Assembly (NCBI GenBank): GCA_043805855.1 | Contig: JAZDHP010000066.1 | Span: forward strand, 1-18,677 | From: Candidatus Micrarchaeota archaeon | GTDB lineage: Archaea; Micrarchaeota; Micrarchaeia; Norongarragalinales; UBA8480 | Direction: 5' to 3' | DNA length: 18,677 nt | Shown: in pieces, positions 6,756-18,396 of the stretch | How the letters are laid out: each line of letters begins with the position of its first letter | How positions within the stretch are numbered: the stretch's first letter is position 1 | Program-made: the position numbers and the translations under genes | Notes under the pieces: generated by a model | What the model was told of the DNA's origin: nothing | Database searches by the model: none | Seen by the model: only the letters and a program-made list of their open reading frames with translations

Positions 6756-7643
6756 TTATTTAGCGTAATTTTTGTATTCTTTTATATATCTCTTGAAGAG
6801 CCACTGTACAAAGATGGAGTTGTTTTTCTTTACTTGGCTGCGTTCCAGTGCAGTGTAATAACTGTTCCTGTTCTCGTAGGGAATGTTCAAAAGCGGGAAG
6901 CCATGCTTGTGAAGGACGAAGTTCATCAAAAGCCGACTTATTCTACCGTTTCCATCGCCGAACGGGTGAATTGTTACAAACTTCAAATGCGCCAACGCCG
7001 CAAGTTCAACTGGGTGAAGTTTATCCTTGCTTTTGTTGTACCACTTGAAAAAGTCATTGAACAAAATTGGCACTTCGATTGGGCTAGGGGGCATGAATTT
7101 ACTACCCGAAATCGCAATTTGGTAACCGCGTAGCTTGCCAGCTAAGTCTAGCTTAGTTGCTTCAAAGAGCTTCTTGTGCCAGTAAAGCACAATTTGGCGG
7201 GTCAGTTCCTTTTTATAACCGAGCATTTCGTAGAACAGTTTCTCATGCGCTTCTGCCTCTTTAATGTCTTTAACTGGCTTGGCGCTCGGCGTAAGGCCCC
7301 GTTCAAGCAAATCTGCCGTTTCTCGGTAGGTAAGCCTAGAGCCCTCTATTCGATTAGTGTCGTAGGTGAACTTGACTGAAAAAGAGCGAACTTGCTTTTC
7401 CAATACACTTTTTGGAGTCTTCTGTTCTTCTCTAGAGTAGTTTTGTTTTATTCTATTAAGTGTAGGGTGCCAGCGTTCCTTGTAAATTTCAGAAAGAAAC
7501 TTGGTTTTGATCTCTTCAATTTTGCCGGGAATTTGTGTGCCTAGGTATTTCTCCTTTTTTGTAACGCCGTGCGCCGTGCGAATTGAGTGCTCAAGGTAAT
7601 AGTATTCTTTAGCTGCGACGGTTCTTTTCTTTACACTAACCAT
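6756..7643 (-). CDS. Fic family protein (AMPylase-type, class II autoinhibited) with an N-terminal extension
   Basis: Canonical HPFGDGNGRISR motif. Inhibitory (S/T)xxxE(G/N) motif TNRIEG lies N-terminal to the core. Confidence 0.95.
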   Translation of the reverse strand: MVSVKKRTVAAKEYYYLEHSIRTAHGVTKKEKYLGTQIPGKIEEIKTKFLSEIYKERWHPTLNRIKQNYSREEQKTPKSVLEKQVRSFSVKFTYDTNRIEGSRLTYRETADLLERGLTPSAKPVKDIKEAEAHEKLFYEMLGYKKELTRQIVLYWHKKLFEATKLDLAGKLRGYQIAISGSKFMPPSPIEVPILFNDFFKWYNKSKDKLHPVELAALAHLKFVTIHPFGDGNGRISRLLMNFVLHKHGFPLLNIPYENRNSYYTALERSQVKKNNSIFVQWLFKRYIKEYKNYAK

Positions 7644-9170: not shown

Positions 9171-10166
9171 ATGTACTGGTCTTCAGCGTCAATTACGCGC
9201 ATTGTAGCGAATATGAACGAGTTGAAACAACGCTGTGCGATAAATTGCACGGAAGTGCAAAAAGCTTATGCTGATAAGAAAAAACCAATAATTTATGACA
9301 TTGCTCCAGTTAGTTTCGATGGCGTCGTCGCTGCGGTTGACTCTGGGTTTTCAACAAAGCAATTTGTCTCTCTCGACGTGATGCTTCTGCGTAGCACAGC
9401 GGCGGTTTTTACTTACAAGCAAAACGCCCTCGTGGCTAACGAGTATTTTCCAAGCAGGGTTCCAGGTGTTTCAGTTCACTGTGGTGTGTTTTCAGAACCA
9501 AGCGACTCACTATGCTTTCGCTCTCTCCTTCGGTTAAGTGCCGAGTTAAACTGCGCGCTGCAAACCGTAAAAATGTACTCGCCGCAAATGCTGCTAATTG
9601 ACGGCAGCTTGTTGCCATTGCCTAATGATAAACCGTCAAAGGAAAGCTCGCTTCACGAAATGTACGCCGAAGTTTTACAAGCGTATAACAACTTATTCGC
9701 AACTTGCAGCGAAATGAACTGTGCGCTTGTCGGAGTTGTAAAAGACTCCCGTAGCCAGCGTTTGTGCAATTTAATTGAACAAGAATTAAAACAAACGCTT
9801 CCAGTTAACAGCGACGAGTTTGTAACTGATTTACTTCTATCACGCAACCAGCGCTCGCTAGCGTTTCAAATAAATGAAGAAAACGCGGCGAATGTAAAAC
9901 TCAGCGACAAAATAAACGCGTTTTACATGAAAGCAGGCGACGCGCTGCCGTACCGCGTTGAATTTATAGGCGGTGAAGAAAAAGCCGATGAAATTGCAGC
10001 TAATTTATGTGCGTTGGGTTCTTCGCAGTTTGCCTATCCTTCAATTTTAATCGAAGTTGACATGCGTGCGGCGCTTACGCCCGGCGAAATTACAAGTGTG
10101 TTCAATTCTCTTGAAAGTGTAAACCGCGATTTAGTTTTACGTTCCAATTCTCGTCCATTCAGGTGA
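9171..10166 (+). CDS. nurA: NurA nuclease (DNA double-strand break resection)
   Basis: AAVDSG, AEL, LLIDGSL, GVVKDSRS, PYRVEF and YPSILIEVD; directly upstream of herA. Confidence 0.9.
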   Translation: MYWSSASITRIVANMNELKQRCAINCTEVQKAYADKKKPIIYDIAPVSFDGVVAAVDSGFSTKQFVSLDVMLLRSTAAVFTYKQNALVANEYFPSRVPGVSVHCGVFSEPSDSLCFRSLLRLSAELNCALQTVKMYSPQMLLIDGSLLPLPNDKPSKESSLHEMYAEVLQAYNNLFATCSEMNCALVGVVKDSRSQRLCNLIEQELKQTLPVNSDEFVTDLLLSRNQRSLAFQINEENAANVKLSDKINAFYMKAGDALPYRVEFIGGEEKADEIAANLCALGSSQFAYPSILIEVDMRAALTPGEITSVFNSLESVNRDLVLRSNSRPFR

Positions 10167-10174
10167 AAAATAAA

Positions 10175-11671
10175 ATGCAAGTTATGTTAGGCACAATTAT
10201 TTCCAACGAAGAAGGTCCTTCAACTCACGAGTTTAGTTTTGTGTTGAGCCCCGGGCAAGTTGCTGCAATTGGTCAACTTGTAAAAGTTCCAACACAAAGC
10301 GGTGAAATAATTGCGCTAGCGAAGAAAATCACGCGTCAAAACCGCTACTATCAATTCGCCGAGTCAATTTCTCAATATGCCAAGGAGTCCAAAACTTTTG
10401 ACGCTAGTTTTCCCGCGCGTGACTGGGAGTATATTGTAGTTTCGTGTTCAATTCTCGGCGTTTTCCAAAACCACCTTCTCCGCTGTTCTTTCCCTCCGTC
10501 GCCTGGAGATAGCGTTGCAGTTGTCGAAGATGAAACTGCAGCTAAAGTGCTCGGCGTTTCCCCAAACGGGCTCAATATTGGAACACTACTCGCCTCTAAC
10601 CTCCAGTGCAAAGTTGACCTCTCGCGATTATTGCAAAAGCACCTTGCTGTTTTGGGAATGAGCGGAAGCGGCAAGAGTCACCTAATGGCGGTTATAATTG
10701 AAGAACTCCTTTCGCGCGATAAAGAAAACGGCAGGCTAAGTGTCATAGTGCTTGACCCGCACGGCGACTACGCTTCTTTTGCCCATCCGGGAAACGCGTT
10801 TCACGATCGAACTCAAGTTATCAAAGGGGAAAACGTGAAAATATCAGTAACGCACTTATCGTCAATGTTGTTGAGTGAACTTGTTCCGTCGATTACTTCT
10901 CCAGCACGGCGCGAGTATAGTAAAATACTCGCTAAAGTTAAACGCGCTTGTGAGGCTGAGGGGAAACTTCTCACTCTTGATGAGTTGATTGTCGCAGCTG
11001 AAGAGAACACTCGCTCTAACTTGGCGGATGTGTTAAACGAAGTGAAGCACATTGGGCTGTTCGACGCGTTTGACGAACCGTCAATGAACTTCGCAAAACC
11101 CGGCCGTCTCACAATTTTTGACTTATCTAACACCAGTGCAAAAGTCAAGCAAGTAATTGCAGCGTTTTACGGCCGCAATTTATTCTCAATGCGTAAGCAA
11201 GGCAAAGTTCCCCCGTTTGTTTTAATTGCAGAAGAAGCACACGTGTTCGCGCGGGAAAAAGCAAAGAGCGAAAACGCAATTTCAAAACCAGTGATTGAAA
11301 GCATTGCCCGCGAGGGAAGAAAATTCGGCGCGTGTTTGTGTCTAGTTTCCCAGCGGCCAGTACAGCTAAGTACAACTGCGCTTTCTCAGTGTAATAGTTT
11401 CATCGTAATGCGCGTCACTAATCCTTATGATTTGCAGCATATTGGCGAGAGTTGTGAAGGTATCGACAAGAATACCCTCGACGCCATAACCTCGCTGCGC
11501 ACCGGCGAAGGGATTGTAATCGGTGAAGCGTTGAACTTCCCAGCGTTTGTCAAAGTGCGGCCTCGGGAGTTCAAAGGCGCAGCTTCAGCTAAGCTAGAGG
11601 ATATAGCAAAGGATTTTGAAACCCGCAGCGTAGCGATTAGCGAAAAAGACGCAGGGGCAGCTTTTCTATGA
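10175..11671 (+). CDS. herA: HerA helicase/ATPase (HAS barrel plus RecA-like domain)
   Basis: HLAVLGMSGSGKS (Walker A), DPHGDY, EEAH (Walker B), REGRKFG and SQRP. AGGTGA RBS at 10161-10166 favours ATG10175 over GTG10163. Confidence 0.95.
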   Translation: MQVMLGTIISNEEGPSTHEFSFVLSPGQVAAIGQLVKVPTQSGEIIALAKKITRQNRYYQFAESISQYAKESKTFDASFPARDWEYIVVSCSILGVFQNHLLRCSFPPSPGDSVAVVEDETAAKVLGVSPNGLNIGTLLASNLQCKVDLSRLLQKHLAVLGMSGSGKSHLMAVIIEELLSRDKENGRLSVIVLDPHGDYASFAHPGNAFHDRTQVIKGENVKISVTHLSSMLLSELVPSITSPARREYSKILAKVKRACEAEGKLLTLDELIVAAEENTRSNLADVLNEVKHIGLFDAFDEPSMNFAKPGRLTIFDLSNTSAKVKQVIAAFYGRNLFSMRKQGKVPPFVLIAEEAHVFAREKAKSENAISKPVIESIAREGRKFGACLCLVSQRPVQLSTTALSQCNSFIVMRVTNPYDLQHIGESCEGIDKNTLDAITSLRTGEGIVIGEALNFPAFVKVRPREFKGAASAKLEDIAKDFETRSVAISEKDAGAAFL

Positions 11672-13180: not shown

Positions 13181-13717
13181 TTAGCCGCCACATCCACAAC
13201 CGCCGCTTGAACCGCAACTGTTAGCAATTGGTGGCGATGCGATGTTCGTAGGGACGTTGCCGTTCGCGTCTTCGACTTCAATTTTTCCATTTCCCATTCC
13301 CATGGGGCACGAAATGCGGAACGTTCCAGCTTTATCTGCGGTGAATTCAATTACGTTGTCTCCTGGGGAAATGCGTTTTCTCACTCCAAAGTCAGGAGCA
13401 ACTATTGTAGTCATACAGCCGCGAAGTGTATTTGTGTCAGCTTCAATGCGCACCTTGTCTCCAAGTTTCACGCGGAGAACTTGCGGGGAGTATGCGGCGC
13501 CATCGAAACTCAACTGGAATGTTTTCACGTTGCCAGTTGCTGAACTAGCTTGCGGTTTAATTTCTGAACTTAATTTAGAACCAGCTCCAACCACTGCGCC
13601 TGTTAGACTTTGAGTCGTCGTTGTTGATGTAGGAGATCCGGATGTGAATTGCATAGCCAGCATGCCAAATATTGCTATTACTGCAATGGCAAGCGCCGCG
13701 AACACTTTATTTTTCAT
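13181..13717 (-). CDS. Membrane-anchored or secreted CupA-like cupredoxin with a Cys/Gly tail
   Basis: Signal/anchor, S/T linker, YSPQVLRVKLGDKV, GC, FTADKAGTFRISCPMGM, and tail SCGSSGGCGCGG. AGGTGA RBS. Confidence 0.88.
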   Translation of the reverse strand: MKNKVFAALAIAVIAIFGMLAMQFTSGSPTSTTTTQSLTGAVVGAGSKLSSEIKPQASSATGNVKTFQLSFDGAAYSPQVLRVKLGDKVRIEADTNTLRGCMTTIVAPDFGVRKRISPGDNVIEFTADKAGTFRISCPMGMGNGKIEVEDANGNVPTNIASPPIANSCGSSGGCGCGG

Positions 13718-13761: not shown

Positions 13762-14556
13762 TCATTTCATTTGGGATTCTTGCAATGGAATAAACTGCAT
13801 TATGTCCATACTTGAGTTAGTTTGCTTGAGCACGCCTACCACGATAAAATTCTTATCTAGGTAATTTCTCATTAAATCTCCAATCGCAACAAATTCTTTC
13901 TCTTCGCGCATTTTCTGAGCTTCTTGTGATCCAATAACAATTGGATAATACGTGCCATTTCCTAAGTTGTGTAACGAGTAGCCATTCATGTTGCCTTCCT
14001 CGAGTTTAAACTGAGGCGGAAGCTCGTCTCCTGGGTTCAAAACATATAACAATTCGGGCAATCCCTTGAATGTTTTTGCGAATACGCGGTCAGATGACGC
14101 GTTCACTGCTTCGAATGCATTTTTTCCAAGAAAGTGAATTTCATCAACTGGGCTTGACGTCTTTTCCAACACGCCAGCAATGGTGGTGCGGTTTAATCCG
14201 AAGAAATTGTTAAGTGAATCGCCAGGTTTTGTAAATAACTTCTCTCTTTGCATTTCTTTCGCTTCGTTGAAGCCAATTACTATTGCATCGTCTTCTGTAA
14301 AGGTGCTTCCTTCAAGTGCAGTAAGTTTTGCAAGTGCGCTATTCTTCACGTAGGCGAAGAGCTTCATGGAGTCATTGGAGGAAAACGCCACTTTGAATTG
14401 CGCTCCGTCAAAGAATGACGAATCTAACTGGTTAGATTCCATTGTGTTCTTTGGGCCAAATGCCAAGTAGGCTGCGGAAACGCCTATCATAAAAAGCAAC
14501 GCAAATAGTATTGCTTTTTTGTTTTCATTTATAAAATTGTTTAATACTTTCATCAT
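13762..14556 (-). CDS. Membrane-anchored protein with two internal MacB-periplasmic-core-like repeats
   Basis: One TM helix, then two copies of IVIG.xEA..M.xEK.F...GD...N.......GVL..T.S..D...F. Confidence 0.75.
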   Translation of the reverse strand: MMKVLNNFINENKKAILFALLFMIGVSAAYLAFGPKNTMESNQLDSSFFDGAQFKVAFSSNDSMKLFAYVKNSALAKLTALEGSTFTEDDAIVIGFNEAKEMQREKLFTKPGDSLNNFFGLNRTTIAGVLEKTSSPVDEIHFLGKNAFEAVNASSDRVFAKTFKGLPELLYVLNPGDELPPQFKLEEGNMNGYSLHNLGNGTYYPIVIGSQEAQKMREEKEFVAIGDLMRNYLDKNFIVVGVLKQTNSSMDIMQFIPLQESQMK

Positions 14557-14577: not shown

Positions 14578-16734
14578 TTAGTGAAGTTTAACCCACTTTA
14601 GTGTAAGTGCGTTTAATACGACGGAGACGCTTGAGAGCGCCATTGCTCCTCCGGCTAAAATTGGAGAAAGGAGAATGCCGTAAGTTGGGTACAAGAGTCC
14701 AGCGGCAATTGGAATGCCAAGCGCGTTGTATACGAGAGCCCAGAACATGTTTTGTTTAATTTTGCTAATTGTTGCGCGTCCTAGTTTAATCGCTCTTGGA
14801 ACGTCCATTGGGTCGCTTCGCATTAACACTACAGATCCAGTTTCCATTGCAACGTCGGTTCCTGAACCCATGGCAATACCTATATCCGCTTGGGCAAGTG
14901 CAGGTGCGTCGTTGATGCCGTCGCCCACCATGACTACTTTGTATCCTTTCTCCTGTAGTTGCTTGACGTATGTTGCCTTATCCTCTGGGAGAACCTCTGA
15001 AAACACATTTGGAATACCTGCTTGTTTAGCAATCGCCTTTGCTGTGCACTCGTTATCGCCGGTAATCATCCACGTTTCAATACCTAGCTTCGCAAGCTCT
15101 TGTACCGCCTCCACGCTTGATTCGCGAATAGTATCCGCAACTCCAATAATTGCAAGAAGCTTGCCATTGACCTTGAGAATCATTGTGGTCTTTCCCTCTT
15201 CTTGCAAACGTACAATAATAGGAGAAATATTTTCATTTGATTTTGACGAGAAGTCCGGTTTACCTAAACTCACCTTTTTTCCCTCGATAGACGCTTCTAC
15301 TCCAAATCCAGGAACAGCTTTGAAATTCTTGACTTTCTTAAGCGCCGCGTTTTTCGATTTTGCGTATTCGACAATGGAATCAGCAAGAGGATGTTCAGAA
15401 CTTTTTTCAATTGCGTAAGCGTATTCAAGCAACTGCTTAGCTTTTCCGGAAATTACAATAAAGTCCGTTACTTTTGGCTTTCCTTCTGTAATTGTGCCAG
15501 TTTTGTCGAATACAACTGCGCGTACTTTATGCATCATTTCAAGACTTTCTGCATTTTTGATTAGAATGCCACGCTGTGCACCGATGCCGGTTCCAACCAT
15601 AATTGCAGTTGGCGTTGCAAGTCCAAGCGCACAAGGACAGGCAATGACTAGCACGGCTACTGCTACCATTAATGCAAATGAGAACGATTGCCCGAGAACA
15701 AAGAACCACGCTAGGAATGTGATAACTGCAATTCCGATGACTATTGGTACAAATATCGAGCTAATGTAATCCGCGAAACGCTGTATATCTGCTTTACTTC
15801 CCTGCGCTTCTTCAACAAGGCGCACAATTTGAGAAAGTACTGTGTCCTTGCCAACTTTTGTTGCTTTGAACGTGAGCGTTCCGTGTTTGTTAATTGTGCC
15901 GCCAATAACTGAAGCGCCCTTAAACTTTTCAATGGGAATACTTTCTCCAGTTATCATACTTTCATCAACTGAAGAGCGTCCATCCACTACGACGCCGTCA
16001 ACTGGAATTTTTTCGCCAGGCTTAACGAGAATAAAATCTCCTGCAATCACTTGCTCTAGCGGTATTTCTATTTCCTTGCCTTTGCGAATAACTAGCGCAG
16101 TCTTAGGCGCGAGGCCCATTAGCTTTCGGATAGCATCGCTTGTGCGTCCCTTTGCAACTGCTTCAAGATATTTTCCAACTATTACTAAGGTAATCAACAC
16201 CGCTGCTGTTTCAAAATATTGTTCTTGAACTAGTCCGAACATTGCGGCGACACTGTAAAAGTAAGCTGCGCTTGTTCCAACTGCGATGAGCGTGTCCATA
16301 TTTGCGCTTTTGTTTTTCAACGCGCTCCATGCGCCGAGGTAAAAGTTCTTCCCTATTATAAATTGAACTGGAGTAGCGAGGAGAAAGAGTAACAGCATGC
16401 GGTAAGGAATGTCCATGAAAACCATTCCAATAAGTAGCGCGGGAATTGACAAAGCTGCGCCAGCAATAATGAGTATTTTGAGTGTTGTGATTTCCTTTGC
16501 TCTTATTTCCTTTTCAGCGTTAGCGTCCACACCAACGCGTGCGCTATACCCTGCTCTTTTCACTGCTGCGAGAAGTGCTTCTTCTTTTACAGAATCATCA
16601 CTTTCGACTAATCCCTTTCCCGAAGCGTAGTTCACATTCGCGTTTTTTACTCCTGGAACCTTTTGCAGCGAACGTGCAATGAGTACAGAGCACGAGGCAC
16701 AGTGCATTCCTCCAATAGTTAATTCAGTTTTCAT
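14578..16734 (-). CDS. copA: Cu(I)-translocating P1B-1 ATPase
   Basis: N-terminal metal-binding [43 protein letters not shown] in TM7 and MALSS in TM8. Confidence 0.97.
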
Positions 16735-16771: not shown

Positions 16772-17719
16772 TTACAGCCCCAATACCACTCCTGCCTTGG
16801 GAGCGAATACGTAAATGAGTGTTAGCACAGCCGCGAGTGCAACTGCGTACGTCGCAAAATCAACAAGTTCTACTTCGACAGCTTCCTTGCCTAACGGTCC
16901 ATTCTCTTTGTACAGCATGTAAGAAAAGGCAAGCATAATTGCCATTTCTATCCCAGTGAGAATAAAGAGAAACGGAATCAAATTGTCATAGATAAGCATA
17001 ACTGAGAGCATCGCGCCCATTGTCCCGGCCATCAAGCCGCCCATGAGGCCCTCCATGACGCCCATAACGCCACAACACTTGCCTGTGTAATAGCCTAAGC
17101 CCATTCCAATTGCTACTCCAACAAGGCTTCCAATGAACATTCCATTTGTTGCGCCGGCAAACGCGCCGAAGAGAAACCCAGCAGCCATTCCAAACGTCAT
17201 GCCGATCATCATTCCAGTCATGCACGTTGCCTTCTTGCGAAACGCCTCTGAGTGGAATACTCCGTTGAGAATAACTGGAATTGAAATCGCAGTCAATAAA
17301 AGAACGCTCCAATAAGATGAAATAAAGTTTGGAATATTTTTAAAAATAAGAAAGTAAAGTCCTATTTCCATGGCGATGATGAGAAAGAAAGAAATTATAG
17401 AATAGCCGAGAAGTCGGTGCTCTCCGCCGAATCCAGGTTTTCCTTGAATAACATTAGAAAGAAACGAGATCCCGCGAGCTAGTTTTCCTCCTTCAAATCC
17501 CTCTTCTGCAACTTGACCTGGAAGTAGGAGTTGATATCCCCTTTCCTTCAACTGAGATTGAATGATGGAAAGTTGCTCGGGGTTGCAATTCAACGTTACC
17601 GTGTTCGCAGTTGTATCAAGCGCTTTCACTTGCGCGCCATCGTTCTTTGAAACAATACGCTCAATCATTTTAGCGCATGAGTCGCAGTGCATTCCTTCAA
17701 CTGTTAATTGATATTCCAC
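16772..17719 (-). CDS. HMA domain fused to a ~7-TM Met/Gly/Cys-rich membrane domain
   Basis: VEGMHCDSC at the N-terminus. TM segments include CMTGMMIGMTFGM and CCGVMGVMEGLMGGLMAGTMGAM. GTG start with an AGGTGG RBS. Confidence 0.88.
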   Translation of the reverse strand: MEYQLTVEGMHCDSCAKMIERIVSKNDGAQVKALDTTANTVTLNCNPEQLSIIQSQLKERGYQLLLPGQVAEEGFEGGKLARGISFLSNVIQGKPGFGGEHRLLGYSIISFFLIIAMEIGLYFLIFKNIPNFISSYWSVLLLTAISIPVILNGVFHSEAFRKKATCMTGMMIGMTFGMAAGFLFGAFAGATNGMFIGSLVGVAIGMGLGYYTGKCCGVMGVMEGLMGGLMAGTMGAMLSVMLIYDNLIPFLFILTGIEMAIMLAFSYMLYKENGPLGKEAVEVELVDFATYAVALAAVLTLIYVFAPKAGVVLGL

Positions 17720-17759: not shown

Positions 17760-17954
17760 TTATGCAATTTTATATCCTTCTGCGGTTACTGCTTTTTGTA
17801 CTGCTGAAAGTGCAGTTGCAGGCGCGTCGACGTCGATTGTTCCCTTTTTGTAATCGGCTTTTTTCACCTTGGCTCCAGGCACTGCATCTTCGATAGCTAT
17901 AGCTAGCAGCTTTTCACACGATTCGCAGTGCATTCCCTTTACTTTTATTATCAT
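17760..17954 (-). CDS. copZ: Copper chaperone (stand-alone HMA domain)
   Basis: 64 aa, VKGMHCESC...AEGYK; GAGGCG RBS. Confidence 0.9.
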   Translation of the reverse strand: MIIKVKGMHCESCEKLLAIAIEDAVPGAKVKKADYKKGTIDVDAPATALSAVQKAVTAEGYKIA

Positions 17955-17991: not shown

Positions 17992-18396
17992 TCACTGAAC
18001 GATTAAAGTTCCTGGACCCCACATGCCCATACCGCACGTGTAAGTGTACGAACCTTTTTGAGTTGGAGTAAATTCAACTATCTGTTCGTTACCCGGAGAA
18101 GCATTCACCCGAACATTTAATCCCTGAATTACGAGCAGTTGTCCACAACCCACGCCTGGTTCTGTTGAAAAATGTAATCTCACTAGCGAACCAGATGAAA
18201 CGGTGATTAAATTTTTATCGTATGTTCCGTCAGCCTTTGCTTTAATGTAAATATCTTGCACACCTTGCCCCTGCTGGCCAGTAAGTGCGGTTCCCGAGTC
18301 GGGATTCTGGACTACATTTGACGTCGTCGCAAATGCAATCGCAATAAATCCAAATGCGATTGCGCTTACGAGTATCAAAAAAGTCAATGCTTTCAT
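17992..18396 (-). CDS. Secreted or anchored CupA-like cupredoxin
   Basis: Signal/anchor, GVGCG and VEFTPTQKGSYTYTCGMGM. Confidence 0.88.
   Translation of the reverse strand: MKALTFLILVSAIAFGFIAIAFATTSNVVQNPDSGTALTGQQGQGVQDIYIKAKADGTYDKNLITVSSGSLVRLHFSTEPGVGCGQLLVIQGLNVRVNASPGNEQIVEFTPTQKGSYTYTCGMGMWGPGTLIVQ

Follow-up and report, generated by a model that had tools for sequence, protein, structure and literature searches.

The RND (resistance-nodulation-division) protein CusA of E. coli hands over Cu(I) and Ag(I) stepwise along a series of Met sites, with proton coupling through acidic residues, and it does so as a trimer with 12 transmembrane (TM) helices and a large periplasmic domain that works together with CusB, CusC and CusF. 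In the MerP-MerT(-MerA) and MerTP systems, an HMA domain and a small polytopic protein with Cys residues at a helix start hand the metal over across the membrane; MerT itself has three TM helices and a CC pair, lacks a Met ladder and transports Hg(II) inward. CopC-CopD and YcnJ, a fusion of the two, also encoded in copper operons, represent an extracytoplasmic beta-barrel copper binder that is paired or fused with a polytopic membrane protein. The eukaryotic importer Ctr1 (SLC31), a homotrimer with three TM helices, a central pore and an extracellular N-terminus, has no ATPase and uses Met residues at i and i+4 of a TM helix as Cu(I) ligands; the MX3M motif in its TM2 is described as forming the two Met triads of a Cu+ filter that binds two Cu+ ions (PMC6437178). 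Little is settled about the ATP-free copper routes of prokaryotes, and in archaea there has been hardly any work on copper handling other than on CopA, CopZ and their regulators. Here we report on a gene in an 18,677-nucleotide stretch of DNA from a Candidatus Micrarchaeota archaeon (assembly GCA_043805855.1, contig JAZDHP010000066.1; the whole stretch is called the window below). The gene, at positions 16772-17719, lies in a copper (cop) operon and encodes an HMA domain followed by a membrane domain rich in Met and Gly, which is referred to as the target protein. Our best reading, held tentatively, is that this protein serves as an ATP-independent Cu(I) relay from the cytoplasmic HMA domain or CopZ to an external CupA-like acceptor, with net export in parallel with CopA.

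The HMA domain and the conserved membrane core

The open reading frame (ORF) of the target starts with GTG on the minus strand, while the plus-strand frame over 16772-17719 contains stops throughout, and the N-terminus lines up with those of its homologues at the shared motif MEYxLxLxGMHC in an alignment of 47 sequences. Residues 5-62 match Pfam HMA (PF00403) with an E value of 4.4e-08 and 33.8 bits against a cut-off of 24.8, and they include the motif M-H-C12-x-x-C15. The AlphaFold2 (AF2) model places strands at residues 2-8, 30-35, 40-44 and 63-65 and helices at residues 13-24 and 47-59 of this domain, which aligns with GolB (4y2i) at a VIA-align Z of 10.2 and a root-mean-square deviation (rmsd) of 1.5 A over 64 residues. 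After the HMA domain the model shows seven long helices (residues 98-124, 132-159, 166-192, 194-216, 218-241, 247-273 and 285-305), in concordance with hydropathy, and the model of the TM part alone is very confident (pLDDT, the predicted local distance difference test, 96.4; pTM, the predicted TM-score, 0.92). Because the mean number of Lys and Arg residues is higher in the segments on the HMA side (3.98 in the N-terminal linker, then 2.11, 0.96 and 2.64) than in those on the opposite side (0.83, 0, 0.23 and 1.11), the protein is predicted to cross the membrane seven times with its N-terminus inside and its C-terminus outside.

Conservation within the family is strikingly uneven along the protein. 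Among the 47 homologues, which are 34-64% identical, 29 columns are invariant, including 14 Gly, 9 Met, C12, C15, E100, E223, A190 and P307. TM5 is the most conserved helix, with a mean column entropy of 0.52 and a family-wide Met content of 30%, followed by TM3 (0.84; Met 20%, Gly 24%), TM4 (1.29; Met 11%) and TM6 (1.58; Met 7%), and the highest entropies are found in TM2 (2.25; Met about 2%), TM1 (2.32; Met about 2%) and TM7 (2.40; Met 5.5%). TM3-TM5 form a conserved core with variable helices around it, TM1 and TM2 presumably being peripheral. TM3 carries the ladder G169, M170, M171, G173, M174, G177 and M178, with C166 at its cytoplasmic end. Its G-M pairs are invariant while the following two positions (i+2 and i+3) are variable (I172 36%, F176 30%), and the Met residues therefore lie on a conserved, presumably buried, face. 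The A190-T-N-G193-M194 turn marks the outer end of the TM3-TM4 hairpin, and C215 and C216 are located in the cytoplasmic loop that leads into TM5. By helical-wheel arithmetic, Met 219, 222, 226, 230, 234, 237 and 241 of TM5 fall within an arc of about 120 degrees over the whole length of the helix. The invariant E223 lies in their midst, and a different face is taken up by Gly. MX3M motifs thus occur as M170/M174/M178 and M226/M230/M234, mostly invariant (M226 98%), which is a resemblance to Ctr at the level of the motif only. The composition is unusual as well, since residues 166-241 contain 14 Met and 20 Gly in 76 positions against a background of 2.0% Met and 6.8% Gly in the other 19 ORFs of the window (binomial P 4e-10 and 1e-7), and residues 169-217 hold an unbroken i+4 series of 13 consecutive Gly. 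Conservation, however, is stronger evidence than this composition.

The conserved Cys residues of the membrane domain, C166 (98%), C216 (87%) and C215 (60%), are placed at the cytoplasmic starts of TM3 and TM5, and no conserved Cys is found near the outer face in the family alignment. Across 256 family proteins the position of C166 is occupied by Cys in 214, by His in 21 and by other residues in 21, and in a divergent subfamily the C166 site holds His, with His or Gln in place of E223. These substitutions are swaps between metal ligands. Gly zippers are common packing motifs, and Gly-zipper_YMGG (PF13441) scores below threshold in 23 of 77 family members (best E 0.0048), so it may be asked whether Gly and Met serve helix packing only in a protein unrelated to metals, with the HMA fusion and the operon position being incidental. 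We find this hardly credible, given that Met is specifically invariant, that Cys is exchanged for His at the C166 site, that 182 of the 256 proteins carry an HMA domain or other Cys/His motifs at the N-terminus, and that the linkage to copA and CupA-like genes is near-obligate.

The membrane domain does not fall into the families to which it might be compared. HMA is the sole Pfam family that matches the window protein at E<=0.1; no Pfam or NCBIfam family covers its TM domain, and across 77 members, with 25 of 68 families listed at E<=1, the sole recurrent hits are the sub-threshold Gly-zipper ones. The family profile gives noise only against the sequences of the Protein Data Bank (PDB), with a best E of 0.028 to a pyridoxal kinase. 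Since fold searches with the full-length model returned HMA matches only, the TM domain was folded and searched alone. Foldseek then gave a best E of 0.45 and TM-scores of at most 0.29, and VIA-align against 48,161 chains gave no match at Z>=8, the best being a designed helical filament (Z 7.9, rmsd 6.5 A over 129 residues). The TM domain is therefore without counterpart in the fold libraries searched, although an absent match is not proof of a new fold. Titles and abstract openings in the full-text literature, which excludes subscription-only papers, revealed no evident paper describing the family.

Several candidate relationships were considered individually. The target is not a homologue of Ctr1, there being no support from Pfam Ctr, either for the window protein or for the 77 members within the families listed, or from fold comparison; the target has seven TM helices, a confident single-chain model, a cytoplasmic HMA domain and seven Met residues down one helix instead of two, and the analogy with Ctr1 is chemical, not structural. 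The NCBIfam model MerTP_fusion reaches 21.4 bits against a cut-off of 180 and covers HMA residues 3-63 only. Neither CopD nor CopC of Pfam matched the window protein, and the families listed for the 77 members include neither, in a comparison by hmmscan only that distant kinship may escape; the target also differs from CopC-CopD and YcnJ in having a cytoplasmic HMA domain and a CupA-like partner of the type C...CxMxM. DsbD, CcdA and DsbD_2 (PF02683, PF13386), a group marked by paired redox Cys in TM1 and TM4, gave no match for the window protein and are not among the families listed for the members, and no sequence or fold similarity of the target to CusA was found by Pfam, Foldseek or VIA-align.

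These results bear on an initial annotation of the window, which was made from the letters and translated ORFs alone. It had described an MHCxxC domain followed by about seven TM helices of no characterised family that it recognised, and this description is borne out by Pfam HMA, AF2 and hydropathy on the one hand, and by the lack of any Pfam, NCBIfam, PDB-sequence or solved-fold match, with nothing above helical-bundle background in Foldseek, on the other. Both of its Cys-initiated Met/Gly strings are present, one from C166 and the other from C215-C216, and the Met residues, whose poor conservation it had named as a possible refutation, are invariant on the conserved face of TM3 and in the all-conserved TM5. 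Its recourse to the chemistry of Ctr1 agrees with the Met triads described for the MX3M motif of TM2 (PMC6437178). Its term pseudo-repeats holds for the likeness of the motifs and fails for a sequence duplication, because a comparison of TM3-4 with TM5-6 by hhalign gave an E of 0.034 over 17 columns with a probability of 1.5%.

The cop module, its CupA-like partners and an analogue in the same operon slot

The cop operon of the window consists of six co-directional genes separated by gaps of 21-44 nt, with the target third in order (Table 1). The position of the target between copZ and copA, as noted initially, is confirmed by the CopZ-like gene and by CopA on the same strand. CopA is identified by Pfam E1-E2_ATPase (E 6e-62), Hydrolase and HMA and by TIGR01511 at 665 bits, above its cut-off, and the strings CPC, YN and MxxSS are visible in its translation. 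A second P-type ATPase is found on another contig of the same genome (G000:C67:11072-11605).

A pattern scan of 185,579 species genomes matched at least 593 stretches, and a relative of the target is encoded in 452 of the matches listed, of which the best 80 were taken as related loci. A strong CopA match is present in 74 of these 80 loci, in 73 of them on the same strand, and a CupA-like cupredoxin gene in 77; the usual gene orders are (Cup)-CopZ-(HMA)TM-CopA and CopZ-TM-Cup-CopA. In a sample of 201 genomes of the phylum, 38 carry the family, with one match each. CopA scores above the TIGR01511 cut-off in 37 of the 38 carriers compared with 123 of the 201 genomes overall, and a CupA-like match is found in all 38 carriers but in only 18 of the 163 non-carriers. 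The co-occurrence with copA that the initial annotation had suggested examining is thus evident both in the loci and in the carrier genomes. In a conserved cop module that also comprises a CupA-like cupredoxin, CopZ and CopA, the target supplies the membrane component. The membrane-anchored protein of 264 residues, encoded between copA and the gene for cupredoxin 2, has a homologue in 11 of the 80 related loci.

The extracytoplasmic CupA-like partner was missed by the initial annotation. Both cupredoxins of the window match CupA of S. pneumoniae (2mry/4f2e), with E values of 8e-09 for cupredoxin 1 by phmmer and 4.8e-09 for cupredoxin 2, and with the Cys and CxMxM ligands aligned. C84, C121, M123 and M125 of cupredoxin 1 are invariant in 25 relatives. 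CupA is described as having two sites for Cu(I), one bis-thiolate and one Met-rich (PMC7558416), and its N-terminal membrane anchor is common to both window cupredoxins. Pneumococcal CupA is further described as pairing with a cupredoxin-type N-terminus of CopA, whereas the CopA of the window carries an HMA domain. In the archaeal CupA-like proteins, the N-terminal signal anchor has Lys ahead of its helix, and the linkers are rich in Ser, Thr and Gly. Their CupA-like domains are probably outside the cell, because of the charge of the signal anchor, the Ser/Thr-rich linkers and the existence of fusions in which the domain follows TM7. The linkers of CupA-like relatives also contain stretches of the GGCGCGG type, which resemble the Cys/Gly tail of cupredoxin 2. 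A predicted complex of the full-length target with CupA-like cupredoxin 1 gave ipSAE interface scores of 0.01 and 0.01 against a mark of 0.32, which speaks neither for nor against binding.

A strong match to DsbD_2 (E 1.6e-50 to 3.2e-38) occurs in 14 of the 18 CupA-positive non-carriers, each time in an ORF of 390-532 residues adjoining CopA, and no such match occurs in any of the 38 carriers, so that the two are mutually exclusive in the 201-genome sample. The domain make-up of these proteins was examined at three loci of the 14 genomes (L084-L086 in Table 1), where each protein runs from an HMA domain through an additional TM helix and DsbD_2 to a CupA-like domain in last place, with seven hydrophobic segments; the DsbD family models (PF02683, PF13386) match them at E 1e-43 to 5e-46. 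These HMA-DsbD_2-cupredoxin (COG2836-like) proteins resemble the target and its partner in having a cytoplasmic HMA domain, seven TM helices, an external CupA-like domain and the slot beside copA. They differ in their TM domain, which is of the DsbD_2/DsbD_TM type with HCxxMC and CGP motifs and shares no sequence kinship with the Met/Gly domain. In gut Firmicutes, regulation by CsoR has been inferred for COG2836 proteins, which combine HMA and DsbD-type domains (PMC4938975), and no characterisation of the function of HMA-DsbD_2-cupredoxin proteins was found in the literature. They look like an uncharacterised analogue in the operon slot of the target. The complementary distribution suggests that the pair of end domains sets the task, for which either of two unlike membrane domains can serve.

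The occurrence of a DsbD_2/DsbD_TM domain, flanked by HMA and cupredoxin domains, in the equivalent slot of sister genomes also raises a redox relay like those of DsbD, CcdA and ScsB, which would pass reducing equivalents outward to the Cys residues of the external CupA-like protein or reduce Cu(II). The conserved Cys residues at the starts of TM3 and TM5 fit this explanation, and so does a thioredoxin-like gene beside copA in L084, a locus of the DsbD_2 type, and in L046, a locus of the Met/Gly type; in both it encodes a membrane-anchored protein with the motif WCSHC. ORFs of the WCxxC type are nevertheless present in only 2 of the 80 loci. The window protein has no DsbD family match, its Cys residues are confined to the cytoplasmic boundary, no more than 60% of homologues keep C215, and thiol-disulfide exchange makes no use of the invariant Met residues. 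The replacement of C166 by His in 21 of 256 proteins retains metal ligation but not thiol-disulfide chemistry. A redox relay is, in our view, improbable for the target.

A possible path for Cu(I) and its direction

In the light of these results it is very probable that the target deals with Cu(I) within the cop system, and we lean towards the view that it moves the ion across the membrane. It is an inference that the TM domain binds copper, and so are translocation, its direction and its coupling. In the relay that we propose, Cu(I) bound to CopZ or to C12 and C15 of the target's own HMA domain would be handed to C166 at the start of TM3 and to C215 and C216 at the start of TM5, which would form a thiolate/imidazole mouth. 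The ion would then pass by ligand exchange along thioethers, namely the half-ladder M170, M171, M174 and M178 of TM3 and the ladder M219 to M241 of TM5, and on its way pass the invariant E223 in the middle of the membrane. It would leave near M194, M241 and D245 for the Cys/Cys and CxMxM site of a membrane-anchored, external CupA-like protein. The Gly stripes may enable close packing of the core helices, and E223 could provide proton coupling. As there is no ATPase domain, transport of any kind would not draw on ATP.

The weakest step of this proposal is direction, and net outward movement of Cu(I) is put forward with considerable reserve. Export is favoured because the module is tied to an exporter operon and because the host genome (1.03 Mb, 92% complete) has no match to COX1, Cu-oxidase_3 or Copper-bind, the plastocyanin-type family. 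In the opposite direction, following the logic of CopC-CopD/YcnJ or MerP-MerT, the external CupA-like protein would capture Cu(I) or reduce Cu(II), the Met ladder would conduct inward by the membrane potential, and the Cys residues and the HMA domain would pass the ion to CopZ, so that CopA could export it again in a controlled way or copper could be sensed. The pairing of an external beta-barrel protein that binds copper with a polytopic membrane protein, sometimes in one chain, mirrors YcnJ, inward cation flow needs no energy coupling, and the order of ligands, with Met outside and in the membrane and Cys inside, matches an affinity that rises toward the cytoplasm. Ctr1, an MX3M conductor of solved structure, is likewise described as an importer (PMC6437178). 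We still consider import or retrieval unlikely, since the family is tied to the operon of a Cu(I) exporter in 74 of 80 loci, since the host genome, at 92% completeness, shows none of the three cuproenzyme families, and since importing a toxic ion beside its exporter looks futile unless for sensing.

The target might also not transport at all and instead bind Cu(I) within the membrane in the role of a sensor, buffer, sink or accessory subunit, for example by presenting Cu(I) from the bilayer or from the exit of CopA to the CupA-like protein, or by reporting copper load. Several Cu(I) ions could be accommodated by its numerous Met and Cys residues, and the gene is accessory to CopA, being present in 37 of 123 CopA-bearing genomes. 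One family protein, P0262 (499 residues, on a 2-kb contig from the Joint Genome Institute), combines an HMA domain and approximately TM helices 1-5 of the family with HisKA_3 and HATPase_c, a sensor-kinase layout. P0262 is possibly a copper-sensing histidine kinase built on the family domain, or, as a single sequence, an assembly chimera. A single sequence on a short contig carries little weight for the family, the modules on both faces and the Met stripe along the whole of TM5 exceed the needs of a one-sided sensor or sink, and the family is single-copy and gives no hint of a multiplicity of the storage type. A function without transport is thus about as unlikely as import. The uncharacterised Cu(I) conduit of the initial annotation is strengthened by these considerations and sharpened to a two-sided relay, while the importer and the store that it named beside the conduit are less favoured, the host genome at 92% completeness having given no COX1, multicopper-oxidase or plastocyanin-type match.

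Several points weigh against the export relay. A passive path for cations leads inward under an inside-negative membrane potential, and export therefore needs coupling or an external sink. CupA of S. pneumoniae is described as facing the cytoplasm (PMC7558416). The superfamily of the DsbD_2 analogue consists of thiol-disulfide electron carriers, which keeps the redox explanation alive. The family is absent from 86 of the 123 CopA-bearing genomes of the sample, and CopA works there without the target protein. Finally, the co-occurrence counts come from related, non-independent genomes and are therefore descriptive.

Table 1. Positions of the genes and protein segments discussed; positions refer to the window unless preceded by a locus name, and placement relative to the membrane is predicted
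Feature	Position	Strand	Remarks
CupA-like cupredoxin 1	17992..18396	-	134 aa; N-terminal signal anchor; C84...C121-G-M-G-M; Pfam Cupredoxin_1 E 2.9e-10
CopZ-like chaperone	17760..17954	-	64 aa; 40 nt upstream of target; Pfam HMA E 1.1e-05
Target, HMA and 7-TM Met/Gly protein	16772..17719	-	315 aa
Target: HMA domain, cytoplasmic (residues 1-68)	17516..17719	-	C12 and C15 at 17675-17686; Pfam HMA; GolB structural match
Target: linker with short helix (residues 80-92), then invariant E100 at TM1 start	17429..17515	-	rich in Lys and Arg; AF2
Target: TM1-TM2 (residues 98-159), variable	17243..17428	-	H156 kept in >=90%; entropy, alignment
Target: TM3-TM4 hairpin (residues 166-216)	17072..17224	-	alignment, entropy
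Target: TM5 (residues 217-241)	16997..17071	-	full-length Met stripe, mid-membrane E223, separate Gly stripe; entropy
Target: TM6, cytoplasmic loop (Y267, E272), TM7, short external tail	16775..16981	-	tail with invariant P307 and K308; alignment, AF2, charge
CopA, Cu(I)-type P1B ATPase	14578..16734	-	718 aa; 37 nt downstream of target
Membrane-anchored protein of the same operon	13762..14556	-	264 aa; MacB_PCD sub-threshold, 24.8 bits vs cut-off 27
CupA-like cupredoxin 2	13181..13717	-	178 aa; signal anchor, S/T-rich linker, C...C-P-M-G-M, Cys/Gly C-terminal tail; Pfam Cupredoxin_1 E 5.8e-09
NurA-HerA pair	9171-11671	+	
Fic-domain protein	6756-7643	-	
HMA-DsbD_2-cupredoxin fusion	L084:2719-4311	-	next to copA; the three fusions have 464-531 aa
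HMA-DsbD_2-cupredoxin fusion	L085:1511-2902	+	next to copA
HMA-DsbD_2-cupredoxin fusion	L086:2703-4121	-	next to copA
Thioredoxin-like protein, membrane-anchored	L084:77-505	-	beside copA
Thioredoxin-like protein, membrane-anchored	L046:3486-3731	-	beside copA

The family and its biological meaning

Apart from the cop operon and the Fic-domain protein, the genes of the window are archaeal housekeeping genes, among them those for RFC, an eRF1-domain (Pelota/aRF1-like) protein, NurA-HerA and Hsp20. The family to which the target belongs is large. Searches at E<=1e-3 found 1265 proteins with the full-length query and 1304 with the TM part alone, and a TM-only profile retrieved, out of 1.84 billion, 730 representatives of clusters at 50% identity, of which 462 are at E<=1e-10 and 163 at E<=1e-30. 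The names that these relatives bear in their sources are generic, such as 'cation transporter', 'HMA domain-containing', 'copper chaperone CopZ' or 'hypothetical'. The best 80 loci come from DPANN archaea, from Methanomicrobia (Methanoregula, Methanosphaerula and Methanoculleus) and from metagenome-assembled genomes (MAGs) labelled Methanosarcinales, together with a few unclassified archaea (one labelled Thaumarchaeota) and one genome labelled 'bacterium'. Divergent members are found in Magasanikbacteria of the candidate phyla radiation (CPR), in Chloroflexota and in one Pseudomonadota MAG. The family is thus mainly found in DPANN archaea and Methanomicrobia, with some bacterial members. In the ESM Atlas, a query with positions 16775-17434 returned unnamed clusters only, the nearest (score 0.97) having 57 members, a length of 226 aa, 54% Bacteria and Bacillota as the commonest group, which points to possible stand-alone members in bacteria.

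Some forms lack the HMA domain. The N-termini of the 256 family proteins comprise 165 with CxxC/HMA, 17 with other Cys/His motifs, 69 that are short and 5 that are long and motif-less, and their C-termini comprise 3 CupA-like fusions, 8 tails with Cys and Met, 221 short and 24 truncated ends. By these counts, a single membrane domain is repeatedly combined with metal-binding modules on either face. In one of the three CupA-like fusions, a Pro/Ser/Thr linker and a SurA_N domain precede the cupredoxin. In a search aimed at longer fusions, four proteins came up, all with HMA and none joined to CopA, and P0164 has two HMA-like CxxC repeats by sequence, one of which is scored by Pfam. Members of the divergent subfamily (P0263, P0266, P0267, P0273 and P0294, one of them from a Pseudomonadota MAG) have Cys/His-rich N-termini in place of HMA and a C-terminal tail that ends in a conserved Cys/Met motif. 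Five short or partial profile matches, extending from positions of about 40-56 to about 195-227 at 82-106 bits, were seen in other genomes (G077:C3:5646-6158, G196:C29:8928-9449, G146:C11:99317-99832, G148:C1:71227-71706 and G137:C106:1458-1940), and two of them are interrupted in frame by a stop codon, TGA in G146 and TAA in G148. These matches may represent a truncated subfamily or decaying copies.

Taken together, we speculate that the target represents an unrecognised class, a single-chain, ATP-independent Cu(I) translocator of seven TM helices with a continuous Met 'wire', gated at its cytoplasmic mouth by Cys and His and possibly proton-coupled through E223, which links HMA/CopZ to CupA-like proteins. 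The DsbD_2 fusions would be its convergent counterpart, and the two together may reveal a 'two-sided chaperone relay' layer. If a Met-ladder relay of this kind proves true, it would offer a minimal and tractable system in which a soft metal ion crosses the bilayer by ligand exchange. CupA-type cupredoxins, known from a few streptococci, would gain an extracytoplasmic role in archaea, and the uncharacterised HMA-DsbD_2-cupredoxin proteins would be given a task. Such a relay would also explain how DPANN and CPR organisms with tiny genomes cope with copper, and would add a two-sided relay layer to the copper homeostasis of DPANN archaea, methanogens, CPR bacteria and Chloroflexota.

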